Shown here: positions 17,377 through 33,939 of the stretch, piece after piece
How positions within the stretch are numbered: position 1 is the stretch's first letter
Layout: the number at the start of each line of letters is the position of its first letter
From: Candidatus Roizmanbacteria bacterium
GTDB lineage: Bacteria; Patescibacteriota; Microgenomatia; UBA1406; GWC2-37-13
Direction: 5' to 3'
NCBI GenBank assembly: GCA_016206365.1
Contig: JACQRR010000053.1
Location: forward strand, 1 to 33,939
DNA: 33,939 nucleotides
Made by a program: the position numbers and the translations under genes
The notes under the pieces: model-generated
The model's input: only the letters and a program-made list of their open reading frames with translations
Databases searched by the model: none
What the model was told of the DNA's origin: nothing

Positions 17377-17414
17377 CCTAATTTGTGTTAAATTGTAAAA
17401 GGTGTCTTATTGTA

Positions 17415-18995: not shown

Positions 18996-19274
18996 CTAAT
19001 CCCGAAGAGGACTTAAGATATTTTTCAAAGTTCTTTTAAGCTCTTCTTTTAATTGCTTGCGACCAAATCCACTCTTCAAAAATTTTTCTCTAGATGATCC
19101 TGAAATGGAAGATAAAATTTTAAGGTGATTATACAGAAATGTTCGTTGCGGAAAATATTTTCCTCCTCTTGCTGAAATAAAAAGGTTAGGATTAAAAAAA
19201 GAAGAAGCAAGACAAATAAATGTTTTAACGATGTTAGAAAAGGTTAGTAAAGACTTAACAAAAAGGTATAGAAA
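18996..19274 (-). pseudogene. Degenerate GIY-YIG family gene remnant (no start codon)
   Basis: The open frame has 92 sense codons between stops and no ATG/GTG/TTG near its 5' end. The C-terminal part, REKFLKSGFGRKQLKEELKRTL, matches the C-terminus of the intact GIY-YIG gene at 22289..22618. The upstream part (ARGGKYF, NPNL) matches only loosely. Confidence 0.55.
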
Positions 19275-19779
19275 TCAGGACGATAAAACAATTAGTTCAT
19301 TTCATGAGGTTTATTTAACTTACCTAGCAGAAGTGGGGTATTCAACTTATCTTGGTTTAAGTATTTGTTTAGATAAGCCGCAAAAAAATTATTTTTTTAG
19401 CAAATCCTGATAAGTCTTATAATAAAAAATTTGATGAAGATCTTTTAATTTTTTTGCGTGGTGCAACCCATATATTCTTTAATTATTGGACATATAGCGC
19501 TATTAAGCATTAAAAACTTAATTAATATTTTAGACGGCGGTAGTGAAAGAGATTGTTAGAGAAATCTAAATAGTATACTTAGATAATTTTAAGCGATTAT
19601 TATAAGTGTTTTAGAAGTTATCGCACCTTTAAGGTACAAAATTATTATTCTAAATATGGGTTTGCATAATCGTTGTTTATTCCTATTTTAAATACCAACG
19701 CCCTTTTGCGCAATTTGTTCGGCATTCAATTTTGGATATTGACATCATATTTTTTCTATGAGAGCATTAATGAAACAGC

Positions 19780-20508
19780 ATGGATAATCAAGCAATTTCT
19801 TCTTCGCAACCATTCCCAAATCAAACACAGCTACCTGTTGTTTCAAAGTCTCAACTGCCTCTCATTATAAGTGGAATATTTATTGTTGTTCTTGCTAGCA
19901 TAGGAGGATTTTATCTTGGGAAAAAACAGGTGGCCGTCACTACTCCAAATTTGAACCCCCTAAGTCCAACTACAACTAAGGTCCAAGAAAAAACAATAAC
20001 ACCTACTTTAATCCCATCTCCAGAAGTAAGTGAGTTTAAAAAAATTTCGTTTGCGACTTTTTTCACATACGAAATTCCAAAAGAATGGTACGCTGGTAAT
20101 ATATGGGGAGCTTCTTCTGATAATGGCATTATTATTGTTATCGATCCAAAACCAATCGACACTGCACCAAGAGACGGTCCATTGGGTAGATTCGAAATTT
20201 TAGTAAAAAACGGCCTACAAAAACCTGAAGCCAAATTTCAAGAAGACATACAAAAATTTAAGGACTCTGTGAATATGGAAAAAGAAGAGGTTATTCAAAG
20301 TAACGGATTTACAATTAATTATTATCGTGGTAAAATTAAGGGCCCATTTTTGCAAGGAAGCACTCTAGAACAATACTTTTTCATGATTCCAAGAACGTCA
20401 GATCCTTTAAATACCCAAGTTGTAGATGCTTCATACCTTCATCAGCCAGACGAAGATCTAACAGAACTTTTTAGAAAAGTTATTTTGAGCATCGAGAAAA
20501 TTCCTTGA
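19780..20508 (+). CDS. Membrane-anchored or secreted hypothetical protein
   Basis: 242-aa ORF. An N-terminal TM/signal-anchor (LPLIISGIFIVVLASIGGFYL) is followed by a Thr/Pro-rich linker and a globular region. No domain was recognised. Confidence 0.6.
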   Translation: MDNQAISSSQPFPNQTQLPVVSKSQLPLIISGIFIVVLASIGGFYLGKKQVAVTTPNLNPLSPTTTKVQEKTITPTLIPSPEVSEFKKISFATFFTYEIPKEWYAGNIWGASSDNGIIIVIDPKPIDTAPRDGPLGRFEILVKNGLQKPEAKFQEDIQKFKDSVNMEKEEVIQSNGFTINYYRGKIKGPFLQGSTLEQYFFMIPRTSDPLNTQVVDASYLHQPDEDLTELFRKVILSIEKIP

Positions 20509-20530
20509 CAATCTACATAAATAATATTTT

Positions 20531-20923
20531 TTAAGAAATCGAGGAAAGTAATTTTATTATTTTTCTGTCGAATGTAGCAAAATTTTCAATTTTATTCTTT
20601 AACGCGAAAGAAATATTATAACAGTCCTCAAACTCAACAGTAACTTGTCTATAAATTTCTAAGGCTTTATATAAAAGGTCTCTTTCTTCAAGTTTAAGAA
20701 AAGTCATATCCAAAATTCTTTGAATAATATCGATTTTTTCATTTTTGCTGATTTTATAGGTGCTTCCTAAAACCCACATTACCTCAAATATGACAAGAAC
20801 AGAAGTAAGCAATTTTTTTTCACCTTTGGATCCGTCCACAAATAAATCCGTAGCCTTCTTATGTTGCATACTACCATCATCAAGAAGATAGCGCAGGAAA
20901 TAATTTGTATCTACAAATATCAT
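20531..20923 (-). CDS. vapC: PIN-domain toxin (VapC family)
   Basis: 130-aa ORF starting MIFVDTNYFLRYLL with conserved acidic positions (D5, E46-like, D-x near the C-terminus). It overlaps the upstream antitoxin gene by 4 nt. Confidence 0.8.
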   Translation of the reverse strand: MIFVDTNYFLRYLLDDGSMQHKKATDLFVDGSKGEKKLLTSVLVIFEVMWVLGSTYKISKNEKIDIIQRILDMTFLKLEERDLLYKALEIYRQVTVEFEDCYNISFALKNKIENFATFDRKIIKLLSSIS

Positions 20924-21174
20924 TTTTTGTATTTTCTTTTAAAGTGCTCTTTTTTGGATTTTTTGATTATTTTTTCTAATTCTTCGTCAGTTAATTTTTT
21001 AGAAGATTTAATTGCGCCAGCTAAACTGCGTACAAGAACCTCTGCTGGGGTCAACAAAATGCTTTCGCCTTTTTTTTCAGCCAATAGATGATCTCCTTTC
21101 GCAATTCCTAATTCATTAAAAATCTTACTAGGTATAGTAATTTGTCTTTTGCTTGATATCCTTACAGTTTGCAA
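20920..21174 (-). CDS. vapB: AbrB/SpoVT-type antitoxin (VapB-like); start uncertain
   Basis: VRISSKRQITIPSKIFNELGIAKGDHLL is a SpoVT-AbrB swapped-hairpin motif. The track ORF runs to 21279 and would overlap the smpB start on the other strand. TTG at 21174, preceded by tataat, gives an 84-aa product of typical size. Confidence 0.7.
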   Translation of the reverse strand: MQTVRISSKRQITIPSKIFNELGIAKGDHLLAEKKGESILLTPAEVLVRSLAGAIKSSKKLTDEELEKIIKKSKKEHFKRKYKK

Positions 21175-21177
21175 TAT

Positions 21178-21206
21178 AGTAAGGAAATTATATAAAAGTA
21201 AGGAAA
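21178..21206. promoter_or_regulatory. Direct 10-mer repeat in the vapB/smpB divergent region (possible antitoxin operator)
   Basis: agtaaggaaa occurs at 21178-21187 and 21197-21206. A tataat (minus strand) lies between the repeats and the putative vapB start. Confidence 0.3.
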
Positions 21207-21240
21207 CATCTGTCAAGCGCAATTTGATAAAATTGGAATA

Positions 21241-21690
21241 ATGAAAATATTCAATCGTAAATTCCGGCGCGATTATCAAGAAATTGAAAAATATGAAGTT
21301 GGTATTGCCTTGACCGGTGCCGAAGTAAAATCAGTTAGAGCTGGTCGGATCAAACTTGAGGACAGTTTTGTCAAAATTCTGGGTTCAGAGGTATATCTTT
21401 TAAATGCGGAAATTCCTATCTATGAATATGCAAGACCACAAGGCTACGATTTGCGAAGGACGAGAAAATTGCTCCTGCATAAGAGGGAAATTATCCGCTT
21501 AAAAACAAAGCTTGCCTCGGCTGGTAAGTTGACAATCGTGCCTATTGCATGTTATAATAAGGCTAGTTTGATCAAGCTTGAGATAGCTTTGGCCAAAGGC
21601 AGAAGAAGCCCGGAAAAGAAAAAATTGGAGAAGGCCAGAGATGTAAAAAGACAAGAAGAAAGAGAAGCAAAAGAATATTTGAAAAGTTAA
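21241..21690 (+). CDS. smpB: SsrA-binding protein SmpB
   Basis: 149-aa ORF. N-terminus KIFNRKFRRDYQEIEKYEVGIALTGAEVKSVR...KLEDSFV, central RTRKLLLHKREI and a basic C-terminal tail are all characteristic of SmpB. It lies directly upstream of the tmRNA. Confidence 0.93.
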   Translation: MKIFNRKFRRDYQEIEKYEVGIALTGAEVKSVRAGRIKLEDSFVKILGSEVYLLNAEIPIYEYARPQGYDLRRTRKLLLHKREIIRLKTKLASAGKLTIVPIACYNKASLIKLEIALAKGRRSPEKKKLEKARDVKRQEEREAKEYLKS

Positions 21691-21815
21691 TTCCGCCTGC
21701 TCTTACCTCAAGTCTTTTCAGTTCTATTCGAACACGACTTGAGGAGCGAGCTTAGGCGGATGTAAGAAACTGTAATGCGCTCTCAAAGATTTGAGATCGC
21801 AAACAGTTTCTAACA

Positions 21816-22211
21816 GGGGATGAAAGGAATCGACGGAATGCATGCACTTTCAAAAATTGGTAGAGCGCACCTGTGCGTTAAACGGAAAAACTTTAATTGC
21901 TGACGAAAGAGATGCAATTGAAGCTTCGAGGTACAGCCGATTTGCTTTTGCGCAAGCACCAGCTTATCAAGCTTACAACTAAGCTTCCTCTGGTTAAGTT
22001 TCCCTTAGTTCAACTTAATTAAGAGATAAACCAATTAAGGTAAGGTTTTATAGGATTCCCGATGGACTATAAAATCGATAAAACCTCATCGGCTTCCCGA
22101 TCAGTTTTGTTTATTTTCTAATCGGGAAAGAGCTAAAAATAATCTATCTCTACCTAAACATTTTTAAAAAGGCCCTTCCGGACCCGGGTTCAACTCCCGG
22201 CATCTCCACCA
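21816..22211 (+). ncRNA. ssrA: tmRNA (ssrA)
   Basis: The 5' end ggggatgaaaggaatcgacgg pairs with the 3' end catctcc + acca. The T-arm is cccgggttcaactcccgg. The 3' segment ggacccgggttcaactcccggcatctccacca closely resembles canonical tmRNA 3' ends. It is adjacent to smpB. Coordinates are +/-1 nt. Confidence 0.92.
22192..22210 (+). repeat. attL-like core: the 19 nt of the tmRNA 3' end that are duplicated at 31183..31201
   Basis: aactcccggcatctccacc is identical at both sites in direct orientation. Confidence 0.85.
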
Positions 22212-22288
22212 CGTCGAACGTGGCTTTAAGCCGCGTGAGACGTGAGTCGTGTTTGACGCGGCCACGTCAATATATTTAATTTCAGCAT

Positions 22289-22618
22289 ATGGAAACGTCT
22301 GACGTTTCCGTCGCGTCATACGCGACAGATATAGCTAAATATAAATCTTCAATAAAAGAAAGGTTTTATGTATATATTTTCTACTCACTAAAAGATCATG
22401 GTTTATATATAGGATTCTCCCCAAACCTAAAAGTGCGATTAATTAAACACGCTAAAGGACAGGTAATTTCTACCAAATTAAGAAGACCATTGCAATTAAT
22501 TCACTACGAATACTCTATTAATAAAGCAGACGCCAAAGCACGTGAAGAATTTCTTAAAAGTGGATTTGAAAGACAACAACTAAAAGAAGCTCTAAAAAGA
22601 ACTTTGAAAAAAGTTTGA
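22289..22618 (+). CDS. Small GIY-YIG nuclease family protein
   Basis: 109-aa ORF. FYVYIFYS..GLYIGFSPNLKVRLIKHAKG...AREEFLKSG is the GIY-YIG core. The 25-aa N-terminal extension overlaps two hairpins (22291-22309, 22310-22327), so the start is uncertain. Confidence 0.8.
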   Translation: METSDVSVASYATDIAKYKSSIKERFYVYIFYSLKDHGLYIGFSPNLKVRLIKHAKGQVISTKLRRPLQLIHYEYSINKADAKAREEFLKSGFERQQLKEALKRTLKKV

Positions 22619-22676
22619 ATAAACTTTGTTTGCTACTGTCCACCAAAAGATTTAAATAGTTATAACAATCTATATG

Positions 22677-23780
22677 TTATTTAAGATTTGCCTCTAAATA
22701 TTGCCTGACAAAATCAGCATCTTGTTGAGAGATATTAGCAGAAACAAGTAAAGTTTCTACTTGCTGTCTTCTTGTTGCGGGGGTTTGCCCGACAGTTTCT
22801 TGAAGGATTTTCAGTAATACGGGGTACTGTTGTTTAAGATGTGGTGCGAGTGTACGCAAATCAGCTCTTCTAGTTATTTCAGCCGCTCTTTTTACAACTT
22901 CAGTTTTTAACTCATCAATATTTACACGTCCGAATCTTAAATCGCGAATAAATGCTAACTTTTTTACTCTATCGGAGTATTTTCCCTTTATATCCTTTGG
23001 TTTTATAGAAGCAATTTCTTCATCCAATTGTCTTAAAAAATCATTTTGTGACATTTCTCCTTGGTAATTTCCTAAATGGGCAACGACATACTCTTGAAAA
23101 TCATTCAGGCTTAATGGGGTCCATTGTTGGATTTCACTGGCATGCTGTCTCAAATATTCTGGAATATATTCTGAAGGCATTCTTCCTTGTGGACCAACTA
23201 AAAATCTTTCCAAATGATCTACATCTCTCGGACTAAAATCTCCTGAAGCGATTAAATCTTGAGCATAGCGAATAATCGCTTCTCGATACCGTTCTCTTAT
23301 GTCATTATGTGCTGAAAAATATAGAGGCTCTTTAATTCCACTCCATGGCCCACCTTTTCCTCCGGTATCTAGAGCGGCTAATTCTGAATGCTGTTTAATA
23401 TAATCTGCTATGAACTGGTTTTGATGAAATCTTTCAGATATTGCTGCAACATAGGGTTCGATATTCATTAGTAATGAATTTTTTGCCAAAAAAGCAATCC
23501 TATTAAATATTTCCGCATTCAAGTCAGGATCAGACATATGGTCTTCAAGATACTTTGTGTATGCATCGCCTAGTTCAATAACTTGATCTGCTTTTTGATT
23601 GAAAACATGATTCTCATTTCCTAGCTTTTGTTCAGCTAACGCTTTTTGCGTTGCCGAACTTATTTTTTTTAGTCTGGTAATAACTCTGTTTTTATCATCC
23701 TGGGGTCTTTCTGCGGCTATTTGTTGAGCTTCAGTTGCAGGATTTGGAGAACTCAATTCGGGCACAGTGGGTTCTTGCAT
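22677..23780 (-). CDS. Hypothetical protein
   Basis: 367-aa ORF with a disordered, Pro/Gln-rich N-terminus and a helical remainder. No domain was recognised. Confidence 0.6.
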   Translation of the reverse strand: MQEPTVPELSSPNPATEAQQIAAERPQDDKNRVITRLKKISSATQKALAEQKLGNENHVFNQKADQVIELGDAYTKYLEDHMSDPDLNAEIFNRIAFLAKNSLLMNIEPYVAAISERFHQNQFIADYIKQHSELAALDTGGKGGPWSGIKEPLYFSAHNDIRERYREAIIRYAQDLIASGDFSPRDVDHLERFLVGPQGRMPSEYIPEYLRQHASEIQQWTPLSLNDFQEYVVAHLGNYQGEMSQNDFLRQLDEEIASIKPKDIKGKYSDRVKKLAFIRDLRFGRVNIDELKTEVVKRAAEITRRADLRTLAPHLKQQYPVLLKILQETVGQTPATRRQQVETLLVSANISQQDADFVRQYLEANLK

Positions 23781-23856
23781 GAAATTAATACTACTATACT
23801 CTGGAAAAGTTTTCTATAAATTGTACATAAATGTTCTATCCGCAGTTAGTAAATAA

Positions 23857-23931
23857 AAGTTATAAACTTCGTCAGATATTAGTCAACGTCTGACTTCAGT
23901 CAGCTGCAGAATTGTACCTGACTTCGTTCGC
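23857..23931 (+). repeat. 75-bp direct repeat R1 (left flank of the AbiEii-like pair)
   Basis: aagttataaacttcgtcagatattagtcaacgtctgacttcagtcagctgcagaattgtacctgacttcgttcgc matches R2 at 72/75 positions. It contains several gtcag/ctgac inverted repeats. Confidence 0.85.
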
Positions 23932-23979
23932 CATCTTACATTAATAGTCTTTAAGAGCTTTTTTTGCTAGAATACTAAC

Positions 23980-24231
23980 ATGTCAGTAAACGATATCGTC
24001 AAAAATAAACCTTATCTTGCTTGGTATGTAAAAAATCCCGAAGTTCTTTCAGAACAGTCTGTACTAGAACACGTACTTAATTATGGCGACTGGGAAGATG
24101 TGCAGTTATTTATTAAAATTAAGGGTCAAAAGGAAACGGCTGAATTGTTCAAAAAATCCCTAGCCAATAAAAGAACTAATTATCTTCCAGCAATCAAAAA
24201 TTATTTTATTCGCTATTTTAATTTCTTATGA
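23980..24231 (+). CDS. Small protein, putative cognate antitoxin/partner of the downstream nucleotidyltransferase
   Basis: 83-aa ORF whose stop overlaps the next start (ATGA, 24228-24231). No domain was recognised. The role is inferred from the operon arrangement only. Confidence 0.5.
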   Translation: MSVNDIVKNKPYLAWYVKNPEVLSEQSVLEHVLNYGDWEDVQLFIKIKGQKETAELFKKSLANKRTNYLPAIKNYFIRYFNFL

Positions 24232-24839
24232 AAATCCAGGTCTTAAACGACGATCAAAAAGAATTGCTACCTTTTATTAAGTCCTTTTCATCTGATTTTT
24301 ATCTGGTTGGCGGAACAGCCGTCGCCCTTCATCTCGGCCATCGGAGATCAATTGATTTTGATCTTTTTACCGATAGCTCTTTTGATCCGGTAAAGTTCCG
24401 AAACAGAATAAATTCACTGCAAAAAATCGGGCATACATTTTCTCAAGGCGAAGGCGAACTGACCGTGCTTGTAAGAAATGTTAAGTTAACTTTTTTTCAT
24501 TATCCGTTTAAGATAGAAGGGAAAACGAATTTCGATGATACCATTACCATGCCGGATCTTATAACGCTTGGGTCTATGAAGGCATTTGCTCTAGGCAGAC
24601 GTGCCAAATGGAAAGACTATGTCGATCTATATTTTATTTTAAAAAGATACTCGTTTACTAATTTAATGAATACAACCAAGAATATTTTTAAAAATGAATT
24701 TAACGAAAAACTATTCCGCACGCAACTTGCTTATTTTGACGATATTGATTATTCGGAAACAATTGACTACATGGAAGGATTTAAGAGGAATGACGATGAA
24801 ATTAAAAACTACTTAGAAGAAATAAGCTTATCGAAATAA
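24228..24839 (+). CDS. Nucleotidyltransferase of the AbiEii/AbiGii toxin family (short form)
   Basis: 203-aa ORF. FYLVGGTAVALHLGHRRSIDFDLF matches the GGTAL..R.S.DIDxF signature of AbiEii-type NTases. Confidence 0.7.
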   Translation: MKIQVLNDDQKELLPFIKSFSSDFYLVGGTAVALHLGHRRSIDFDLFTDSSFDPVKFRNRINSLQKIGHTFSQGEGELTVLVRNVKLTFFHYPFKIEGKTNFDDTITMPDLITLGSMKAFALGRRAKWKDYVDLYFILKRYSFTNLMNTTKNIFKNEFNEKLFRTQLAYFDDIDYSETIDYMEGFKRNDDEIKNYLEEISLSK

Positions 24840-24869
24840 TATATCCAAGCTAATTTAGAGATTTTATAG

Positions 24870-24944
24870 AAGTTATAAACTTCGTCAGATATTAGTCAGC
24901 ATCTGACTTCAGTCAGGTGCAGAATTGTACCTGACTTCGTTCGC
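24870..24944 (+). repeat. 75-bp direct repeat R2 (right flank of the AbiEii-like pair)
   Basis: 72/75 identical to R1. It is followed by tattgtccacagtaaatttag, which resembles gcttgtccaccagtaaattttag at 32339-32361. Confidence 0.85.
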
Positions 24945-25003
24945 TATTGTCCACAGTAAATTTAGTTCTTTTAAATAAATTGAACTAATACAATTTCTAA
25001 AGT

Positions 25004-25693
25004 TTATACTTTTCTATTTGTCCATCTTGAATATATGGCATGAGATACCATGGTTGGTGGATTGATTTCGGAGTCAATACATGTCCAAGTATTTATTCGC
25101 CCCAGTAAAGCTAATTGGGTGATTACCGCTGGATAAAGATTTGCTATTCTTTTTAAATTTTCAATAGATTCATGATAGTCAGAAGTTGTTTTACGCTTAA
25201 CTCTTAAACTGGCAGTTTCAGGAGAAACAGTTAGTAAAACAACATCATCAACAATTCCTTTTCCGCCGACTGCTTCCACCATGGAAACAATCGCTCTAGA
25301 AGGAATACCTCCTAACCAGTAAAAATGACTCATAATCACGGAATCTATTTGACGATGTCTATCTTGAACTAAATAGTCTGGATCGTAGTTTTTAATTATA
25401 TAAGGCTCTATTACTCTTCCTTGAACAAAAATATGACTTAGAAATGCAGCGAAAAGTGCTAAAGGATTATGATGTTCTTGCCCATTTTCATAAAGCGCGA
25501 GAACTTTGGAAGCAAGATCTGGAAATAAAACTGTTTGTTCACCTCTCCGAACAACATATGAAGGTTCGCTTAACGAAGCGAGAACGCCAATACTAAATGT
25601 TTTACCCAACATACTTGCAACTGCATGAACCGTAGTAGTTTTACCAGAACCATCTATGCCAGTGACGCTTGCTTTATAAATTTTTTCACTCAT
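25004..25693 (-). CDS. Thymidylate-kinase-like P-loop NTPase
   Basis: 229-aa ORF. The Walker A motif is VTGIDGSGKTTT. A DRH...S..M segment and LLTVSPETASLRVKRK resemble the DRY and lid regions of dTMP/dNMP kinases. Divergent. Confidence 0.55.
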   Translation of the reverse strand: MSEKIYKASVTGIDGSGKTTTVHAVASMLGKTFSIGVLASLSEPSYVVRRGEQTVLFPDLASKVLALYENGQEHHNPLALFAAFLSHIFVQGRVIEPYIIKNYDPDYLVQDRHRQIDSVIMSHFYWLGGIPSRAIVSMVEAVGGKGIVDDVVLLTVSPETASLRVKRKTTSDYHESIENLKRIANLYPAVITQLALLGRINTWTCIDSEINPPTMVSHAIYSRWTNRKV

Positions 25694-25703
25694 ATTTTCG
25701 GAA

Positions 25704-26225
25704 TTACTTTTTCACACGATTTTTACTAAAAAGATAAATATTATAAGGTAGTTGGGCAACTAGACTTATTGTTATATCGCTAACTCTTTGAGCTAAGGCA
25801 ATAGTTGGATCACCTGTTAAGATACTAACAATACTGGAAATAGGAGCAGTGGGATCTGGATTAATACCAACAACATTCATTAATACTGTTCCTATTTCAG
25901 CTGCAATAGCATTAAATTCATGACGTTGAGGAAATGCGAATGTTAAACCACGATAAAGCGTATTTGCTTTAGCTGATCCACCAACTTTATCTCTTCGCAA
26001 AACATAATAATCTAATCCGGCAGAAGCTAAACTAAAAAGAGCATAAGCCGCGATACCTAAAGGTACTAATTCTGGATTCTCTTTCATCTTTTCACTAATT
26101 AATACTGTCCCAGCCGAATTTGCTGCAGATAATGGTAACTTACCTAAAAGTGCAACACCAAAACTACCCAAAAACGGTGTCCACTCACCTCTTTTGGGTA
26201 TTGCTACTTTTATTCTTTCTCGCAT
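25704..26225 (-). CDS. Small integral membrane protein
   Basis: 173-aa ORF with about 4 hydrophobic segments, 10 nt upstream of the kinase-like gene on the same strand. Confidence 0.55.
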   Translation of the reverse strand: MRERIKVAIPKRGEWTPFLGSFGVALLGKLPLSAANSAGTVLISEKMKENPELVPLGIAAYALFSLASAGLDYYVLRRDKVGGSAKANTLYRGLTFAFPQRHEFNAIAAEIGTVLMNVVGINPDPTAPISSIVSILTGDPTIALAQRVSDITISLVAQLPYNIYLFSKNRVKK

Positions 26226-26337
26226 ATGAATAAGCTAAAAGTATAACTAGAAATTATAACAAATAGCCTGTGAAAAATTTTTTATACCCCACTCTACAGG
26301 TAATAGTATCTGATTAATTAATCAATTAACATACACT

Positions 26338-26439
26338 AAAGCACGTGAAAAATTCCTAAAAAGTGGATTTGGCAGAAAACAACTAAAAGAAGCTTTGAAA
26401 AGAACCTTAAACTTTCCAAACATAGAGAAACTAAGTTAG
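26338..26439 (+). pseudogene. 3' fragment of a second GIY-YIG gene
   Basis: It encodes KAREKFLKSGFGRKQLKEALKRTL... and aligns without gaps to about 75 nt of the intact gene (22535..22609) with roughly a dozen mismatches (hand count). An in-frame stop lies immediately upstream (26326-26328). Confidence 0.7.
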
Positions 26440-26549
26440 ATTCTCGAAAAAGTCTTAACAATTATTGAAGTAAGTCATTTATCCTGCCTCAACAATATCT
26501 TTCACTCCAGAAGTGTTATTAGTGTTATTATAGATTAAGTATAGCAAAT

Positions 26550-27578
26550 TTAGATAATTCCTAATATTTTCGCGAAAGACTGTGCCACTATTTGAGCGAT
26601 AATTGGATGTTTGACGATTTTTTCATTTACCCATTTTGCTTCTGTTTTTAATTCTTCTAAAATACTCTTAATCTTTTGATAATTATTTTCTTTTTTAACT
26701 TCGGTTTTTAGGCTATCAACAAGTTTCAATACTTCTTTTTTATTGCTAAAGTCCTTTTTTTGAATTTCTGCTTCTATTTCAGAAAAAGCTATATTGATAT
26801 TCTGACTGTTGATGATCACAGGACTATTATCTCCTGATGTAGTTGCATTTATTTGATCTCCTGTAAATTTCTGATATATCAGCTCTGATGGAAACTTGAC
26901 GCTAAATTCGGATTGATCTTCAATGTGTTTAATTCCCTTATTTAGAATTTTAACAGTAACAATTTGTTGTGGATCACTGTGGGTACTAATAACTGCATCA
27001 ATTAGCTTATCATCTAGCAAAAAATAAAGATTTCTATAAAGAGCTTTTGCACTAACAGGTAAAAAGAACTTGATTTTATCCAAAGGCATATATGTTTGTG
27101 GATCTTCTGTCCAATAATCATGCAGTGTAGTCAAGATTTTTCGTCTAATCTGGTCATCGCTTGGTTCGGCTCCAAATATTATCCTTTGTGCTGTTTTCTC
27201 AAAACCGCCTTTTACAGCTATGCTATAAATTTTATTATCGGGTGAAAAGCCTTCGTTTGAAGTATTAAACATGAACATAAAACAGTGATGATTATCAGCA
27301 AATCTGTTTTTAATTTTTTCTAAATCTAATGGAAGATGCTGTAATAAAGCAAGATATGCTAATTCTTCTTCTGATTTATTATTAAAAGATAATCCTATTG
27401 CAACAGCTCTTGCAGTTCTAGTCCAACAAACTGAAATACAACCTATAACATCATCATTATCTGTATACAATAAATATATAAATAAGGCGGTGCGATCACC
27501 TGATTGTTGAACCGGATTTTCGGTATCGGGCTTAATATAGTAAGTATTATTTTCTATTTTAATTCTTACTTTATCCAT
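26550..27578 (-). CDS. Hypothetical protein (possible winged-helix middle region, coiled-coil plus hydrophobic C-terminal tail)
   Basis: 342-aa ORF. The central IRRKILTTLHDYW...PVSAKALYRNLYFLLDDKLID looks wHTH-like. The C-terminus has KE-rich heptads and ends IIAQIVAQSFAKILGII. No family was recognised. Confidence 0.55.
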   Translation of the reverse strand: MDKVRIKIENNTYYIKPDTENPVQQSGDRTALFIYLLYTDNDDVIGCISVCWTRTARAVAIGLSFNNKSEEELAYLALLQHLPLDLEKIKNRFADNHHCFMFMFNTSNEGFSPDNKIYSIAVKGGFEKTAQRIIFGAEPSDDQIRRKILTTLHDYWTEDPQTYMPLDKIKFFLPVSAKALYRNLYFLLDDKLIDAVISTHSDPQQIVTVKILNKGIKHIEDQSEFSVKFPSELIYQKFTGDQINATTSGDNSPVIINSQNINIAFSEIEAEIQKKDFSNKKEVLKLVDSLKTEVKKENNYQKIKSILEELKTEAKWVNEKIVKHPIIAQIVAQSFAKILGII

Positions 27579-27591
27579 TTCTTAATTATAC

Positions 27592-27624
27592 AAAAACCCG
27601 CCATGACTTTTCGGTAGTGGGCGG
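27592..27624 (-). terminator. Intrinsic-terminator-like hairpin on the minus strand, immediately upstream of the 26550..27578 start
   Basis: The minus strand reads ccgcccactaccgaaaagtcatggcgg followed by gttttt, a GC stem with one bulge. A tataat follows before the ATG at 27578. Confidence 0.35.
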
Positions 27625-27748
27625 ATTGTAGGAGTGAACTTTCTGCTCTCTGAAATAGAGCGTTTATTTTAAGTCTGCATACTTTGTAAAAGAGGATCGT
27701 TATGATCATAAAAATATTTAGCTGAAAAAACTAAGAGGAAAGATCTAA

Positions 27749-27859
27749 AGTGAAATAAATCAACGAATTGATATTGAAGTAATAAATTGAAATTCTACTT
27801 TTAGAACTTTAACTAAAATTGCTAAAGCGTTAAAAATAACCTCCATCTCAACTTATTAG
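27749..27859 (+). pseudogene. Decayed XRE-family HTH gene remnant
   Basis: The frame reads SEINQRIDIEVIN-stop-NSTFRTLTKIAKALKITSISTY. The TL.KIAKAL.I segment is typical of the third helix and following region of XRE repressors. It has an internal TGA (27788) and no start. Confidence 0.35.
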
Positions 27860-27984
27860 ACAATTTCCCATTTAAAGATAGTTTTAATGAATGAGGGTTA
27901 AACTTTATTGTGTATATTAAATTATATTGTTATAATAGGCTAAAATAAAAACAGCCTGTTTTATGAAGAAATGTAAGTGTATCT

Positions 27985-28009
27985 TTAACTCAAAGTTAAT
28001 TTGAGTTAA
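27985..28009. promoter_or_regulatory. Perfect 10-bp inverted repeat 9 nt upstream of the HTH-ImmA start (likely operator)
   Basis: ttaactcaaa (27985-27994), gttaa, tttgagttaa (28000-28009). Confidence 0.5.
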
Positions 28010-28018
28010 AATGATTTT

Positions 28019-29206
28019 ATGACCAAAGTTAAAATCAATTTCAGGGGTAAAACTGTATTAATATCTTCTGACGTTTTAAGATGGGCAAGAGAAAGTATTG
28101 GAATGAGTTTAGAGCTTACTGCAAAGAAACTTAAAGTTAATGAAGGGATACTTGCTGACTGGGAAAGAATTACCTCGCCCATTCCTTTAAGTAGATTCAA
28201 ACTATTTTCTAAAGTTTATAAGCGTCCTTCTGCAGTTTTTCTATTGGATAAACCCCCTATTGAAAAACTTCCCTCTGAATTTAGAAGACATATGGAAGAA
28301 AAAAGAGTTGAGTTTACAACTAATACTTTTTTAGCAATAAGAAAAGCAAAAAGAATACAACAGACTTTTCTTGAACTTTCAGATAAAGAAGAAAATCCAT
28401 TCATTAAAAAATTAATAGCTTTTGAGAAATATAATGATCCAGAGCTAGTTGCAAGTAAAGTAGCTATATTACTAGGTCTTGACTATAAGAATATTTTAAA
28501 AACAAAAGACACTTTTACTCAATTAAAAATCTGGAAAAAAATACTTGAGTCCGTAAATATATTGGTTATTGAGCTTAAATTTAATCCCTACGAAGCTCGT
28601 GCGTTTTCTTTATATGATAAATATACTCCATTGATCGTCTTAAGCACGCAAGATCATCCTTATGCTAGAATTTTTTCATTGGCGCATGAACTAGGGCATT
28701 TTATATTCAAGTCAAATGGAATTGATATAGATTCAGATTTCAATCAAAAAAAAGAAGATAATTATTTAGAATACTTTTGTAATTACTTTGCCGGATCCTT
28801 GCTCGTTCCTAAAAATGAATTAGCGGTAATAATTAAAAACAAGGGATTTGATCGTAATAGATTTCAAGAAGAAGATTATTTAAATTCTGTTTTGTTACAG
28901 TTAAGCTCGCAATTTCAAGTGAGCACCCAAGTAATACTCCGTAGACTTTTAATTAATAACTTCATTTCTTCGGACAATTTTACTATTAAACATAAACAAT
29001 TGATTTCAAAAAAACAAATTTACAGAAAACCAATTGGAGCAGGAAATTATTACGTAAATGTGATTAAAAATTTCAGCCATCTATTTATAAGTAAACTACT
29101 TGAAGCACATAACGAAAATAAGATAACTCACTATGACTTGTTAAATTATTTAAATATTAAGAGCGAAAATGTTCCTAAATTAGAATCAAAACTTTTGCAT
29201 TATTGA
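28019..29206 (+). CDS. XRE-type HTH fused to an ImmA/IrrE-family (M78) zinc metallopeptidase
   Basis: 395-aa ORF. The N-terminal LRWARESIGMSLELTAKKLKVNEGILADWER fits an HTH. SLAHELGHFIF is the HEXXH motif in the ImmA/IrrE context. Confidence 0.85.
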   Translation: MTKVKINFRGKTVLISSDVLRWARESIGMSLELTAKKLKVNEGILADWERITSPIPLSRFKLFSKVYKRPSAVFLLDKPPIEKLPSEFRRHMEEKRVEFTTNTFLAIRKAKRIQQTFLELSDKEENPFIKKLIAFEKYNDPELVASKVAILLGLDYKNILKTKDTFTQLKIWKKILESVNILVIELKFNPYEARAFSLYDKYTPLIVLSTQDHPYARIFSLAHELGHFIFKSNGIDIDSDFNQKKEDNYLEYFCNYFAGSLLVPKNELAVIIKNKGFDRNRFQEEDYLNSVLLQLSSQFQVSTQVILRRLLINNFISSDNFTIKHKQLISKKQIYRKPIGAGNYYVNVIKNFSHLFISKLLEAHNENKITHYDLLNYLNIKSENVPKLESKLLHY

Positions 29207-29207
29207 C

Positions 29208-29681
29208 ATGCTAAATATTAATTCAAAAGCAGGATATTCTGTTGATTCAAGTTTCTTCATTCAATTAAAAAATAATGTTCCAATAAATCACTATCCATCC
29301 GTTTGGAATAAGATTAAAGATTATATTGATAGTGGTAGATTTATATCTCCTCAACCTGTCTATGATGAATTAATGAAACGTAGTGATGATCTAAACAAAT
29401 GGTTAAGCAAAAATAAAGATACAATGTTTACTCCCATTGATGATTTACTGGAATTAACGAAACAAATCTCAAAAGATTACAGTGATTTAATTGAATCTAC
29501 CTCTGACACAGAAGTTGCTGATCCATATGTTATAGCACTTGCAATAAAAGCAAGGAGAAATGTTTTGACAATTGAAAGTAAATTGGGAAAAGTTAACATT
29601 CCATATGTTTGTGATCAAATGAATGTGCCGTGCGTTAAAAAATTAGGAGAGTTTTACGTAGTAGAGAATTGGAATATCTAA
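29208..29681 (+). CDS. DUF4411 family protein (PIN-like predicted nuclease)
   Basis: 157-aa ORF. YSVDSSFFIQL, YPSVWNKI, VYDEL, DLNKW, VADPYVIALA and VNIPYVCDQMNVPCV follow the DUF4411 pattern. It starts 1 nt after the ImmA stop. Confidence 0.8.
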   Translation: MLNINSKAGYSVDSSFFIQLKNNVPINHYPSVWNKIKDYIDSGRFISPQPVYDELMKRSDDLNKWLSKNKDTMFTPIDDLLELTKQISKDYSDLIESTSDTEVADPYVIALAIKARRNVLTIESKLGKVNIPYVCDQMNVPCVKKLGEFYVVENWNI

Positions 29682-29720
29682 TTTTGATTTAGTTTTAATC
29701 GTTATATTGGTTGGAATTTT

Positions 29721-30236
29721 ATGAATATAAAGCATTTGTTTTTTACTTTAATAATTTCTGTATTAGTTGGTGGTTCAGTTTACTTTTATATGTCAAACAA
29801 AACATCGCTTAAAGAAAATTTTCCTAATGGTGTTAAAGTTGATCCAGAAGCAGGATTAAACTGTAGAGCAATATTTGGTAATTTATTATATGGAAATAAT
29901 ATCGGTCAAGATAAGGGAATTCATGCTAACTTATTTAAAGGATCAGATGAATTAGCTATTGAAACAGATAGTCAAGGCAAATTCAGTTTTATTACGAAAG
30001 CATCTGTTGGAATTGGACAAGCAAAATCAGATGAGGGTTGGAAGGTTGTAAAAAACGATAAAGAATATCTTATTGCAGTTCTAGATAAACTCGGAGACCC
30101 CATTCCTATCAGAAATTCTCATAATACTTTTATGCTCAATAAAGAGAATGGTATTGCAATATGGACAAAAACACGATTGGTCAACTTGGGTACTAACACG
30201 CCCGAAACACAATCTTATTTACTAAGGTGTAATTAG
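29721..30236 (+). CDS. Membrane-anchored or secreted hypothetical protein
   Basis: 171-aa ORF with an N-terminal TM (LFFTLIISVLVGGSVYFYM), 39 nt after the DUF4411 gene on the same strand. Confidence 0.55.
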   Translation: MNIKHLFFTLIISVLVGGSVYFYMSNKTSLKENFPNGVKVDPEAGLNCRAIFGNLLYGNNIGQDKGIHANLFKGSDELAIETDSQGKFSFITKASVGIGQAKSDEGWKVVKNDKEYLIAVLDKLGDPIPIRNSHNTFMLNKENGIAIWTKTRLVNLGTNTPETQSYLLRCN

Positions 30237-30373
30237 TTTAGTTAGAGTAAATTAGATAAAAAGTTTGATAAATTAGATTGTCATATTGTTGATCTTTTAG
30301 TTTTTTGCCTTCATTTTGTTGAAAGGTATGATTGGGTTTATAGCAGGGATAAAGAAAGGAATAGAATAAAAAG

Positions 30374-31024
30374 ATGATGCAAACTCCTAAAAAAGATAAA
30401 AGAAAAAAAATTGATCAGCTACCTTCAACTTGGAGTGATGTAGATTTTTCTTCAATGCAAGACAACGAAAAATTATATTGGTTTGAATCAAGAAGAATTA
30501 ACGCATGGTTAATAAACGATACTAAAAAAATAAAAGAAAAAGGAGAATCTATGTTTGGATTAGCAGCGATGGTTTGTGTCGGAGTTGAGTTTTTAAGTAG
30601 ATTCAGATACGGTAAAGATAAACCAAATGAATACTTTCCAAAATTTCTTGAAGAATATCTTGACAAAAAGTTTAAGTATAAAGTAAAAAAACCTTACAAT
30701 CCTAATCCTCCCGCCAATAATTATGAGAAATGGTTTTACACAAAACCTTACTTAAAGTATTCAGAAATTTTTTATTTTGGATTAAGAAATCAACTAATTC
30801 ATAATTTCTTATTAAGGCATACTGTTATTATTGAACCGTTATCAACTTTATTAAAGTGGGAAAGAAAAAAGAAAAGGTTGTTGGTTGATGTTAGATATTT
30901 GTTAATTAGTTTTGAAAATGGAATTAATAAATATCTTAAAGAACTTTGGAAATCTAAAAAGGGCGAAGAAATATATGAGAATTTCTTTTCAGTTTTTACT
31001 TTAAATTTTCAAAGGAAATTTTAA
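30374..31024 (+). CDS. Hypothetical protein with a HEPN-like Rx4H motif
   Basis: 216-aa ORF with a basic N-terminus. FYFGLRNQLIHNFLL (R138..H143; 30785-30802). The overall layout resembles the 17590..18174 product. Confidence 0.4.
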   Translation: MMQTPKKDKRKKIDQLPSTWSDVDFSSMQDNEKLYWFESRRINAWLINDTKKIKEKGESMFGLAAMVCVGVEFLSRFRYGKDKPNEYFPKFLEEYLDKKFKYKVKKPYNPNPPANNYEKWFYTKPYLKYSEIFYFGLRNQLIHNFLLRHTVIIEPLSTLLKWERKKKRLLVDVRYLLISFENGINKYLKELWKSKKGEEIYENFFSVFTLNFQRKF

Positions 31025-31200
31025 GAAATTGGTGCTCGTTATTTGAGTAATAGTTCTTTACATAGTCAACCAGAGCCAGTCAGAGCTATTTTGTTACTTT
31101 CTAGAATGTAATACCATCTCCAAATATAACTCTCTATTTCCTTAAAATTCTTTGATATGTTTTCTTTTAGCTGATTTGAAGAAACTCCCGGCATCTCCAC
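30996..31200 (-). repeat. Repeat unit B: F1 (31066..31200) overlapping F2 (30996..31079, +1 frame), abutting the attR-like tmRNA fragment
   Basis: F1-B is VEMPGVSSNQLKENISKNFKEIESYIWRWYYILESNKIALTGSG. F2-B is LALVDYVKNYYSNNEHQFLKISFENLK. The +1 frame relation is the same as in unit A. The first codons of F1-B are the reverse complement of the tmRNA 3' end. Confidence 0.6.
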
Positions 31201-31201
31201 C
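31183..31201 (+). repeat. attR-like 19-bp direct copy of the tmRNA 3' end
   Basis: aactcccggcatctccacc is identical to 22192..22210. The flanking bases differ on both sides. Confidence 0.85.
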
Positions 31202-31270
31202 TGAAGATTTAGATTAATATAACAATCTAGATATACATATACACTACTCACATTTTTAATTATCCTAATC

Positions 31271-31299
31271 TTGACATTTATAGATCGCTGTGCTATAAA
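31271..31299 (+). promoter_or_regulatory. Sigma-70-like promoter for the MTAP-like gene
   Basis: ttgaca (31271-31276), a 17-nt spacer, then tataaa (31294-31299). The ATG at 31312 implies a very short leader. Confidence 0.5.
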
Positions 31300-31311
31300 T
31301 TCACATAATTT

Positions 31312-32226
31312 ATGCCAGCCAGATCAGAACATCCTCAAGCCATTATCGGAGGAACGGGATTTTCCGAATTTGCTTCAGACTTTCAAATAATACTTACCGA
31401 TTACGGAGATGTGCGTGTTGGGCACCTTGAGCTTGGAGGTAAGGAAGTATTTTTCCTATCACGGCACCAACAACTAGAAGCTCCTCATTTAGTTAATTAC
31501 CGGGCAAATATGCAGGCACTGAAACTTCTTGATGTTAATACGATATTTGCCGTGAGCGCTTGCGGAAGATTAGCTCAAGATGTTCTCCCTGGTCATCTTG
31601 TTGGAGTAGACGATATTGATTGGGATGATGCTGGTTCTAGACCGTCTACATTTGTTGAGCCGGGATTACTTTTACATGCCTCGACAAATGAATTATTTAG
31701 TCCCGGATTAAGAACCATCTTGGCTGAATCTTGGGAAGAGGTGGAACCCGAAGTAGCTCAATTATATGATGGAACACAATTAGCGGTTGGTTACCATGAC
31801 GGCGGCACTTATTTTAATATTAATGGGCCTGCTTTTACTCCACCACATCGAGAAGCCAGATTACGTAGACAAACTGAAGATTCTAAAGTCATAGGAATGA
31901 CGCTCTTTCCAGAGACTCATTTAGCTAGAGAGATGGCGATGGCATATGCGGCAATTGGTATGTGTGTTGATCATTCCAATTTTCCGGGTGCTCCTCCAGT
32001 ATCACACGCAGAAGGAGTAATGGTAGCAGTACAAAAAACTGCACAAGCCGCATATAAGCTGATAAATCGAGCAACTAAAAATACACCTAATGATTTTTAT
32101 GATGTAGTCGCTCACGGTGCTTTTAAAAACTCACTCTTCCCGGGTCAAGTTGATTTTGATCGTTTAAAAGGAAATGGAAGAACAAATCTTGCGTTTATTT
32201 TAGATAATGCCTTAAAAAGTCAATAA
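31312..32226 (+). CDS. mtnP: S-methyl-5'-thioadenosine phosphorylase / purine nucleoside phosphorylase family
   Basis: 304-aa ORF. AIIGGTGF, FFLSRH, VNYRANMQALKLLDV, GPAFTPPHREARL, VIGMTLFPETHLAREM and CVDHS follow the MTAP/PNP (PNP_UDP_1) pattern. Confidence 0.75.
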   Translation: MPARSEHPQAIIGGTGFSEFASDFQIILTDYGDVRVGHLELGGKEVFFLSRHQQLEAPHLVNYRANMQALKLLDVNTIFAVSACGRLAQDVLPGHLVGVDDIDWDDAGSRPSTFVEPGLLLHASTNELFSPGLRTILAESWEEVEPEVAQLYDGTQLAVGYHDGGTYFNINGPAFTPPHREARLRRQTEDSKVIGMTLFPETHLAREMAMAYAAIGMCVDHSNFPGAPPVSHAEGVMVAVQKTAQAAYKLINRATKNTPNDFYDVVAHGAFKNSLFPGQVDFDRLKGNGRTNLAFILDNALKSQ

Positions 32227-32243
32227 CATAAAATTAAAGAGGA

Positions 32244-32348
32244 TTAAATACTCTCACGCGGTATAGATAGCTTTAAGCTGCGAAGTAAAGGATACCACCT
32301 CCAAATGTATTCTTCAATCTGGTTTAAACTATTTTGGAGCTTGTCCAC
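32244..32348 (-). repeat. Repeat unit C: F1 mini-ORF copy (34 aa, GTG start)
   Basis: It encodes VDKLQNSLNQIEEYIWRWYPLLRSLKLSIPRESI. The first 57 nt are 52/57 identical to unit A, and 4 of the 5 differences are synonymous in this frame. The length matches F1-A. Confidence 0.6.
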
Positions 32349-32417
32349 CAGTAAATTTTAGATTGTTACAGTAGTCCAAATATTGATAAATCTTCTTTTA
32401 TTGTTTATAATTCTCCC

Positions 32418-33602
32418 ATGTCTTATCAAGATAGAGGACGTTTTATCTCTCAATGGGAAGCTGGCATAAATCCTTTGTCCCAATTTGAGCAGAGCTTCGA
32501 AGGAACTCGCAAAGTCTTTCATAAACCTCTTTCTGCAATTTATCAAGCTCTTTTTCAAAAAGAATTAGCTAGAGGAGATATTTTAGCTTTAGGTATTGGT
32601 ACTGGACAGGTAGAAGAAATGGCTCGAGTAGACTCGCGTCGAATTAGAGCAATTGATGTTTCAATAGGTTTTTTAAATAAAGCAAGAACTAAATTACCAA
32701 AAGCTCATTTTCATCAAGGAAGAATACAAGATGTATTGCCTTCATTAGATCATCATTCCTTAGCATTTTCTTCAGATGCTCTTGACTGTATCAATCCTTT
32801 AGAACTCGGTGAGGTCTTATCACTTATTCGGAAAAAGACAGACAAATTAGTGATAGCTCAGGTTTTTATGCCAGATGATGAATTTTATTCATTTTACTTT
32901 CCACGTCCAGGAATTGGGTCTCATGGAGGACCAGGTATTGATGGTTGGAACCAAGATCAACATACTGCAGCAGAGCAGCATTTAAATAATTTAAGAATAA
33001 TTAGTCCAATAAATCAACCTGATTCTCTTTTAAAAGAAGTTCAAGCTGCAGTTCATTCTAAATTTAACTCAGAAATAAAAGGTGATATGGTAGATTTACT
33101 TGATAGTATCGGTTTCCAGTTTAGAACAATGCCACAAATACGGAATCATCGAGCTTATGCATCTGAAGTGGATCTATTTCTGGAATATATTGCAGATTAT
33201 ATCGGAAAAATGAGAGAGAACGTTCTTCCTCGACGACCTCAACCTCAAGAAGTTGCTAAATATGTTGCTGTTCATACTATACATAGACTTTCCCAGCTTT
33301 TTCACGGAACAATTCAGATGGAGCTTTTTTTCAAAACCTTTGAGGATGCTTGTTTGAAGGCAGGTTTTACAAATATTCAAAGAAAAGCTCTGGCAGCAAG
33401 TGGAGATAGAATTGTTAATGATCCGAAAATAATAGAAAACGTTAATCGATCTCTACTTGCTTCAACTCAATTGGAAATACCTGCTTCACATATAGATCAT
33501 ATTAATAGTGGCTCGTTTACAAATGGTGCGGCTATGACATTCTTTGAACCTCAATCTAATCCTTTTAACGATGCTCGTGTTCAATATTTAGTTGCTTCTT
33601 AA
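32418..33602 (+). CDS. Class I SAM-dependent methyltransferase-like protein
   Basis: 394-aa ORF. DILALGIGTGQVEEMA fits the glycine-rich SAM motif I, followed by IRAIDVS (acidic motif II-like). The long C-terminal extension is unassigned. Confidence 0.5.
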   Translation: MSYQDRGRFISQWEAGINPLSQFEQSFEGTRKVFHKPLSAIYQALFQKELARGDILALGIGTGQVEEMARVDSRRIRAIDVSIGFLNKARTKLPKAHFHQGRIQDVLPSLDHHSLAFSSDALDCINPLELGEVLSLIRKKTDKLVIAQVFMPDDEFYSFYFPRPGIGSHGGPGIDGWNQDQHTAAEQHLNNLRIISPINQPDSLLKEVQAAVHSKFNSEIKGDMVDLLDSIGFQFRTMPQIRNHRAYASEVDLFLEYIADYIGKMRENVLPRRPQPQEVAKYVAVHTIHRLSQLFHGTIQMELFFKTFEDACLKAGFTNIQRKALAASGDRIVNDPKIIENVNRSLLASTQLEIPASHIDHINSGSFTNGAAMTFFEPQSNPFNDARVQYLVAS

Positions 33603-33832
33603 ATATTCAGAAATTTAAAATTTATCTGATCTTTATAAGTTAAATAATAATTATAAACTTCGTCCGCTGTGCTCCACATACCGCCAGACGCTATATTTAT
33701 CTAGTTTTACGTGACAGATCACTCTTAAAAAGTTTTTATTTAAAAAAGTAGAAGTTAACCGCACAAATTACTGTAGGAGTCGATAGAAACAAAGATTGTA
33801 TTTATATCTTTGAACTAGGAAATTACAATTTG

Positions 33833-33862
33833 AATAAAAGTTATAAACATCATTCGCTAGAG
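33833..33862 (+). repeat. Short copy of the R-repeat ends (aataaaagttataaac ... cattcgctagag)
   Basis: The 16-mer aataaaagttataaac is identical to 23852-23867. The following catcattcgctagaga resembles the ttcgttcgcctagaga end at 17581-17596. Another ttataaacttcgtc lies at 33651-33664. Confidence 0.45.
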
Positions 33863-33939
33863 AAGTTTTTGAAATTCTTTAGGAGCGAGTTTAATTAGAT
33901 ATTAAAAAGAAGGTATAACTATATTACTGATACTTACCA

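Follow-up and report, generated by a model that had tools for sequence, protein, structure and literature searches.

Organization of the smpB-ssrA locus

The 33,939-nucleotide stretch of a Candidatus Roizmanbacteria genome analyzed here (contig JACQRR010000053.1; referred to as the window) contains the tmRNA gene ssrA and, about 9 kb to its right, a second copy of the ssrA 3′ end. The repeat is the 19-mer AACTCCCGGCATCTCCACC, which occurs exactly twice in the window, both times on the plus strand, at 22192–22210 (the 3′ end of ssrA itself) and at 31183–31201; there is no further copy in the window at two or fewer mismatches, and the number of matches expected by chance is 0 (100 shuffles). A first-pass annotation, made from the sequence alone, had reported this exact 19-bp duplication of the tmRNA 3′ end in direct orientation, and we find the same two copies. 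It had also taken them for the attL and attR ends of a single island without an integrase, which does not agree with the native-type left junction described below. We consider it likely that the copy at 31183–31201 is the attR scar of an island integrated at ssrA by a large serine recombinase (SR), and that it lies within a serially accreted and decayed stack that is now a fixed composite. The features at the core of the locus are as follows.

21241–21690, plus strand: smpB, directly upstream of ssrA (Pfam SmpB, E=4e-41)
21816–22211, plus strand: ssrA, the tmRNA gene and integration target (ARAGORN; Rfam RF00023, 104 bits)
22192–22210, plus strand: repeat copy 1, the ssrA 3′ end, which appears to behave as attB rather than attL and is followed by native-type sequence
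31183–31201, plus strand: repeat copy 2, the probable attR core of a serine-recombinase ssrA island, with the same geometry as the attR at 17740 in the related locus L032

Relatives of the window SmpB are up to 86% identical and come nearly all from Candidatus Roizmanbacteria assemblies, which belong to the candidate phyla radiation (CPR). The order smpB then ssrA is kept in 27 related loci.

Serine recombinases at ssrA in related genomes

In four of the related loci (L032, L029, L009 and L033) ssrA is immediately followed by a large SR gene on the opposite strand. Two of the copies, in L032 and L029, are full-length and uninterrupted and encode proteins of 522–529 amino acids (aa); the copy in L033 stops at the contig end. 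The 3′ end of the SR gene extends into ssrA, and the protein end (...LVEMPGVEPGS...) corresponds to the tmRNA 3′ end read in antisense. The 522-aa L032 protein has Resolvase and Zn_ribbon_recom domains only (Pfam). L032 is informative in that both ends of a complete island are visible: its 20-mer TCAACTCCCGGCATCTCCAC is seen again 6777 nt downstream, and the order is ssrA, the opposite-strand SR overlapping the ssrA end, cargo, the 20-nt repeat, and then a spacer and a GIY-YIG gene. The register of the 19-mer in the window is that of the 20-nt repeat in L032. Just inside attR, L032 has a short tail open reading frame (ORF), MPGV DLNQIQRYIWKWYNIIKSQELLMAG*, which is in the MPGV frame as is its counterpart in the window (see below). 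The first-pass suggestion of an unconventional mobility function is not needed, as these relatives have a conventional large SR at ssrA.

The SR copy in L009 (10827–12407; SmpB 84% identical) abuts ssrA and has a single in-frame stop; this is a snapshot of integrase decay.

The L032 SR has more than 2800 homologues, and the few with a source name are from Parcubacteria, Patescibacteria or Microgenomates. The 120 best homologues include 94 with the tmRNA-antisense end by a strict pattern, about 12 more with variants of it, and nine full-length SRs of 532–540 aa that have an unsplit tail instead. In P0075, P0078 and P0079 the SR C-terminal domain (...MYFEEKL.YD...GFGT.TLA...NHLVD) is joined directly to this tail. 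P0079 (unsplit) and P0090, which has the tmRNA-antisense end (...INMVEMPGVKPGS), are 76% identical and part exactly at MV|D/E. When viral contigs were searched with the L032 recombinase, the one match was distant, 33% identical over the catalytic domain.

These comparisons show that integration splits the SR gene in this family. The enzyme is a large SR of ~520–540 aa with Resolvase and zinc-ribbon domains, and its attP is located within the 3′ part of its own gene, at the codons L-V-D/E (the opposite strand reads TCCACCAG). On insertion at the ssrA 3′ end, ~500 SR codons remain next to ssrA and read into it in antisense (...LVEMPGVEPGS...), and the last ~30–40 codons (...IEEYIWRWY..., ...LNQIEEYIWRWYP...) are carried to the distal end, where they adjoin attR on its island side.

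A further recombinase gene, fragmented but with an unsplit tail (..NHMVDSMENGLNQIWDYIWRWYP..), is at 9316–10378 in the 36.6-kb contig of L040, where there is a HEPN_AbiV gene but no tmRNA gene in the 11.6 kb examined. This element may be in an attP or tandem state.

Recombinase tails in the window

Three fragments of SR gene 3′ ends are present in the window.

31069–31182, minus strand: tail B, a 3′-terminal SR gene fragment, SSNQLKENISKNFKEIESYIWRWYYILESNKIALTGSG*, which continues the frame of the repeat when this is read in antisense (VEMPGV)
32247–32375, minus strand: scar C, consisting of a complete SR tail (NLLVDKLQNSLNQIEEYIWRWYPLLRSLKLSIPRESI*, 32247–32357), GTCCACC, and the best copy of the ssrA flank native to relatives (32350–32375)
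14844–14963, plus strand: tail A, a further SR tail fragment, whose orientation is opposite to that of B and C, at the margin of a low-GC block that lies upstream of smpB

Tail B is supported by a tblastn match to the tail adjacent to attR in L032 and by alignment with the C-termini of full SRs. A profile of the nine unsplit tails, built solely from full-length SRs and thus independent of the window tails, matches only A (1.6e-15), C (1.8e-14) and B (1.4e-4) among the 1330 window ORFs. Tails A and C are 91% identical over 58 nt, and four of the five differences are synonymous, as judged by reading both sequences. In the reverse direction, a profile of the three window tails finds only small ORFs among 1.8 billion representative proteins, P0075, P0078 and P0079 being three of these. 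Orphan tails are not peculiar to the window; with the nine-tail profile, antisense examples are found 1–7 kb downstream of ssrA in L003 (two), L010, L011/L038 and L032. There is also a sense-oriented tail in L008, upstream of ssrA and ~8 kb away.

With attP placed within the SR gene, and the tail consequently at the right end of islands, the second 19-mer is best read as a true attR. Its interpretation in the first-pass annotation as an integration scar at ssrA is strengthened accordingly by the in-frame tail and the L032 geometry. The window would retain only the far end of the island (tail B, the 19-mer and sequence like the ssrA flank), the SR body having gone. No complete tyrosine or serine recombinase is present between the repeats among the called ORFs (Pfam), no recombinase was found in other open stretches of at least 30 aa in six frames (Pfam), and tblastn with the relatives' SR gave no complete recombinase in the window; an SR gene abutting attL and overlapping ssrA is likewise absent from the window. 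The earlier statement that the interval has no recombinase ORF therefore holds for a complete gene but overlooked the SR 3′ fragment at 31069–31182, which tblastn and the tail profile place beside the second repeat and whose location inside attR is diagnostic of this island family. Of the possibilities offered there (a decayed or mobilizable remnant, or an unconventional mobility function), decay of the element with loss of its integrase is the part that stands.

A classical tyrosine-integrase island, with an integrase decayed past recognition, could in principle have left a similar repeat, tmRNA genes being common targets of tyrosine integrases (PMC4383910). We think this highly improbable: there is no Phage_integrase signal in the called ORFs or in any other frame (Pfam), the recombinases at ssrA in the related loci are all serine recombinases, and the fragment beside attR belongs to the SR family.

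We also considered whether the tails are remnants of IS1595, a fragment of which lies at 14383–14721 with a similar ...EYVWRYNYR sequence. This reading was rejected because a library-wide profile search located the motif nowhere but in small ORFs and in fragments of recombinase C-termini. Full-length serine recombinases also carry it.

The IS1595 transposase fragment and tail A are both part of a low-GC block (32%) at 14383–21240, upstream of smpB, together with three orphan ORFs, a GIY-YIG fragment (19021–19088, minus strand) and a PIN/MazE-type toxin-antitoxin pair (20531–21279). The block resembles additional debris of islands, here to the left of smpB-ssrA.

Junction scars and composition

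Every TCCAC in the window was scored for similarity to the sequences that natively flank ssrA in L003 and L011. The significant matches are at 32344 (score 22), 22639 (17) and 31196 (15), all on the plus strand and downstream of ssrA, with 0.03 matches expected at a score of 15 or more, 0.02 at 16 or more and none at 22; a weaker match is at 24950 (12). Together with scar C, these correspond to the following features.

22619–22675, plus strand: scar 1, a degenerate remnant of an SR P arm, TCCACCA, and flank-like sequence (flank-scan score 17)
24946–24970, plus strand: scar 2 (weak), a TTGTCCA-CAGTAAATTTAG junction motif (flank-scan score 12)
31202–31232, plus strand: flank like the native sequence downstream of ssrA in L003 and L011 (..ATTTAGATT..; flank-scan score 15, 0.03 expected)

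As read from the sequence, the TCCACCA of scar 1 and the end of ssrA make up a direct repeat of 7 nt. Local alignments show that the segments 22619–22665, 24946–24970 and 31156–31215 resemble the scar at 32304–32368; scar 1 aligns with scar C with a score of 18 (null maximum 14), and scar 2 with a score of 16, which is reached by 0.2% of shuffles. There are thus at least four related junctions that split the interval from 22212 to ~32349, at ~22644, ~24954 (weak), 31201 and 32349, although only one of the four has the full tmRNA core. Reading rightwards from ssrA, the spacer and GIY-YIG gene are followed by scar 1, then a 367-aa orphan and an AbiE pair by scar 2, then a kinase pair, a GIY-YIG fragment, a 342-aa orphan, ImmA/DUF4411, two orphans and tail B by the second 19-mer, and finally a gene of the MTAP family and tail C by TCCACC and native-type flank.

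The composition of these segments fits the junctions only partially, as listed here with the maximum tetranucleotide distance of a null distribution.

26321–31182: GC 29%, tetranucleotide distance 0.38
22212–26320: GC 35%, tetranucleotide distance 0.25
31202–33939 (right flank): GC 36%, tetranucleotide distance 0.26
4.5-kb chunks of the core: null maximum tetranucleotide distance 0.21

Clearly foreign composition is confined to 26.3–31.2 kb, and the profile rises again at 31.2 kb. When the interval 22211–31182 is compared with the flanks, as the first-pass annotation had envisaged, the segment 26321–31182 is indeed foreign and the left half is near the flanks. Its hint of more than one accretion event is borne out by the internal junction scars and the compositional break.

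The four related junctions imply repeated integration at ssrA, which would have been followed by deletion, replacement and decay of each recombinase body. The island would then be not integrase-less by design: its integrase gene would have been split by integration and afterwards mostly lost, and the surviving 3′ piece identifies the recombinase family.

The 82-nt repeats described below and the presence of hairpins suggested an integron-like cassette array, which was rejected; intI is absent, genes occur in both orientations, and the junction motifs are related to the ssrA end.

The left junction and the GIY-YIG gene

The sequence to the right of ssrA consists of two features.

22212–22288, plus strand: G+C-rich spacer with inverted repeats between ssrA and the GIY-YIG gene, kept in relatives
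22289–22618, plus strand: GIY-YIG nuclease-domain gene, 109 aa (Pfam PF01541, E=8e-11)

Over the ssrA end, spacer and GIY-YIG start, the window aligns with the L008 native junction as well as with the L032 sequence on the attR side, and by analogy L008 is the empty state of the site that is occupied in L032. Because the spacer and GIY-YIG gene follow ssrA natively in relatives and follow attR in L032, the left site looks, from its sequence, like an unoccupied attB and not an attL. A GIY-YIG gene is beside ssrA in ~15 of 28 loci. A homologue comes directly after ssrA in ten (L008, L010, L012, L013, L015, L017, L019, L023, L030 and L034), and others are after attR in L032 (spacer and gene at 17760–18207) and beside smpB in four loci. 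The combination of an ssrA-adjacent GIY-YIG protein of ~100 aa and a G+C-rich, hairpin-forming spacer is found in Roizmanbacteria and in more distant CPR loci. By this comparison the window GIY-YIG gene is a recurrent ssrA neighbor rather than island cargo, as which it had at first been listed. We found no literature on an association of GIY-YIG genes with ssrA.

The native-type left junction bears on the possibility that the 9 kb is one intact, integrase-less mobilizable element, with the 19-mers as functional attL and attR and with excision and re-integration carried out in trans by an SR encoded elsewhere in the genome or community. The two copies agree at 19 of 19 positions, which suggests that the repeat is recent or has been maintained, the right arm has kept its SR tail, and SRs like that of L032 are abundant in CPR bacteria; module-less islands of Dehalococcoides have been proposed to be cis-mobilizable (PMC3146451). 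Nonetheless we regard such an element as unlikely. To the right of copy 1 there is native spacer and GIY-YIG gene, which L008 and the L032 attR side also have, and not the P′ arm of an island, so the pair of 19-mers looks like attB plus attR rather than attL plus attR. The internal scars and the compositional break at 26.3 kb indicate several units, and the location of the 367-aa gene next to MTAP in L003 also speaks against a single mobilizable one. Most likely the 19-mer pair is an attB-like site plus an attR, and the 9 kb is a fixed composite that would not excise as a unit.

A second alternative is that the repeat arose by homing or duplication of a unit made up of the ssrA 3′ end and GIY-YIG gene, with later insertions moving one copy 9 kb away. 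A GIY-YIG origin is consistent with L030, in which a 381-bp GIY-YIG cassette lies within an 18-nt repeat of the tmRNA end and is followed by a second GIY-YIG gene, with the frequency of GIY-YIG genes beside ssrA in relatives, and with the one complete gene and two fragments in the window. However, the second 19-mer has no spacer or GIY-YIG gene after it and is preceded by an SR tail in the correct frame, as at attR in L032, and the 109-aa protein has the catalytic domain only, with no recognizable DNA-binding domain. This origin therefore seems quite improbable for the 9-kb repeat, and the attB-plus-attR arrangement remains our preferred account. The spacer and GIY-YIG cassette may itself be a selfish element specialized for the ssrA 3′ flank, competing with islands for the site.

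Genes between the repeats and in the right flank

The remaining genes and repeats are listed from left to right.

22677–23780, minus strand: orphan 367-aa gene, with GC close to the flanks and a 42% identical homologue adjoining MTAP in L003
23853–24947, plus strand: AbiEii-type toxin-antitoxin pair (23980–24839; an 83-aa upstream partner and AbiEii at 24228–24839) inside 82-nt direct repeats
25004–26225, minus strand: P-loop kinase-like gene and 173-aa partner, with a weak Thymidylate_kin match under the Pfam cut-off
26321–26411, plus strand: 3′ fragment of a second GIY-YIG gene, 83% identical to 22517–22608, which marks the GC break
26550–31024, both strands: low-GC cargo, consisting of a 342-aa orphan (minus) and a helix-turn-helix (HTH)+M78/ImmA gene with DUF4411, a 171-aa orphan and a 216-aa orphan (plus)
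31312–32226, plus strand: MTAP-family phosphorylase gene (Pfam PNP_UDP_1), between scars B and C

The gene content largely agrees with the first-pass list. The GIY-YIG gene, the AbiEii pair, the HTH-ImmA and DUF4411 genes, the kinase/membrane pair and the orphans are all present, and the truncated second GIY-YIG gene at 26321–26411 is real; the fragment at 19021–19088 is a third. The HEPN-like gene is the exception and finds no support, the 216-aa ORF having no Pfam match. AbiEii is identified by both Pfam (E=5.6e-10) and PADLOC (E=2e-6). HTH and M78/ImmA with DUF4411 are at 28019–29681, and the HTH+M78 protein matches RmrA (PADLOC, E=3e-16). Judging by these family matches (AbiEii, and RmrA-like with DUF4411), the cargo of the 9-kb interval appears to be mostly toxin-antitoxin or defense-type modules. 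The 173-aa partner of the kinase-like gene is judged to be a membrane protein by reading its sequence, and the 367-aa orphan is probably lineage-native and not foreign cargo.

The two 82-nt repeats that flank the AbiE-like pair (23853–23934 and 24866–24947) are 94% identical, and each copy contains nested inverted repeats around CTTCG motifs. The first ~20 nt of the repeat (..GTTATAAACTTCGTC) are found again at 33641 and in L008, L012 and L013. It may serve as a promoter or leader, or it may mark where a cassette ends.

MTAP is surrounded by a 26-nt imperfect inverted repeat (31204–31229 and 32359–32384). Among its closer homologues (~45–78% identical), those with a source name belong for the most part to CPR bacteria and DPANN archaea. 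MTAP, too, may have been brought in as cargo of an island.

Gene order in relatives and the history of the locus

The flanks of the relatives hold no island gene other than GIY-YIG and the 367-aa orphan. When L003 (9054–12122) is compared with the window (21241–32226), smpB-ssrA is inverted relative to MTAP and directly adjoins it, and the 367-aa orphan and GIY-YIG gene are on the far side of MTAP. We attempted to trace the history through L003, but one inversion cannot relate both gene orders, and therefore the ssrA neighborhood appears to be often rearranged in this clade. Because an older scar (32247–32375) lies after MTAP, the ancestral empty site probably did not have MTAP directly after ssrA.

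Several observations weigh against an attR scar within a decayed stack. Of the three tails, B has the weakest match (E=1.4e-4), and it has an 11-residue insertion relative to the L032 tail. The flank-like sequences to the right of the junctions may represent half-sites of the recombinase, native flanks that were displaced, or an intergenic motif that is simply common. All of the window units that we infer are without an SR body, which needs either repeated loss or SR-less mobilizable units. Protein look-ups and a metagenome scan found no empty site or excision junction: exact-protein look-ups with SmpB and GIY-YIG gave no match, those with MTAP and the 367-aa orphan gave only 100% identical sub-contigs from two Logan runs, and the scan for the tmRNA end followed by N4–7 and ATTTAGATT gave two loci, one unrelated and one of the L011 species. 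The only other contigs of this organism (L001, L002 and L041) each duplicate part of the window at 100% identity. The order of events is not reconstructable, as the nearest relatives show poor synteny.

Comparison with other integrated elements

The closest parallel is with the ssrA islands of Dehalococcoides described in 2011, which have a 20-bp ssrA repeat, are low in GC and form tandem arrays downstream of ssrA (PMC3146451). Their 540-aa SR, DsiB, is encoded on the reverse strand by attL and always overlaps it, and it was suggested that the SR gene is complete only on the circle or beside an island with the 3′ gene fragment; 15 of 31 islands have no integration module (PMC3146451). The window and its relatives share the ~20-bp repeat, the reverse-strand SR of ~520–540 aa (in relatives), the tandem accretion and the low GC, the likeness of the CPR SR to DsiB being one of described architecture. 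The window resembles a module-less derivative, as do about half of the Dehalococcoides islands. There are departures, in that the host is in CPR/Patescibacteria and not Chloroflexi, the cargo is toxin-antitoxin or defense-type genes and orphans rather than reductive dehalogenases, and the window lacks an SR body and has a native-type left junction. The rest of the six-gene module (DsiA, RecF-like, ParB, Mom) was not noticed in the relatives' islands, for which no systematic search was made. We found no literature on such ssrA islands in Patescibacteria, and the split-serine-integrase ssrA islands described in Dehalococcoides would thus extend to CPR/Patescibacteria. The occurrence of SR homologues in both split and unsplit states supports the 2011 suggestion.

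As in Islander/TIGER-type tDNA islands, integration is at a tRNA or tmRNA 3′ end and a displaced gene fragment forms the far boundary; unlike those islands, the recombinase is a serine and not a tyrosine enzyme, and a tyrosine integrase domain is absent. In the SSV-type archaeal integrase and in mycobacteriophages BPs and Brujita, attP is located within one of the element's own genes and integration gives the gene product a different C-terminus. In the present family it is a large SR gene that is split and ssrA that is targeted, and any regulatory effect is only putative.

One such effect can be proposed tentatively, although we think it has only a modest chance of being correct: that splitting of the integrated SR gene is a switch. 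The swapped C-terminus would probably make the protein inactive or alter its directionality, the full-length form would exist only on the circle or beside an island that supplies the 3′ piece, and the orphan tails at 31069–31182 and 32247–32357 would be retained parts that can re-complete an adjacent SR gene. If so, stacks of ssrA islands in CPR bacteria would be interdependent. The tail motif and the TCCACCA junction can meanwhile serve as practical markers that delimit variable, defense-gene-rich regions of CPR genomes, where few mobile elements are otherwise recognizable.

The Seg proteins of phage T4 are free-standing GIY-YIG homing endonucleases. The window GIY-YIG gene is similar in being small, in occupying a fixed intergenic spot by a conserved gene and in being present or absent among relatives; it differs in that its product is a catalytic domain of ~100 aa with no recognizable DNA-binding domain, and in its position peripheral to the repeat.

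Other features of the window

The tag peptides predicted for the tmRNA are long (~24–27 aa) in the window and in L009, L013, L016, L020 and L027, and in all of these they end in ..YN or ..VN (ADERDAIEASRYSRFAFAQAPAYQAYN in the window) and not in the usual ..AA; in many other related loci the tag has the usual ..AA or an ..FA end. Far to the left, at 3584–12097, the window has a gene for a 2009-aa bacterial alpha-2-macroglobulin adjoining a PBP1C-type penicillin-binding protein gene, a pairing that is typical of diderm bacteria and unexpected in a CPR genome.

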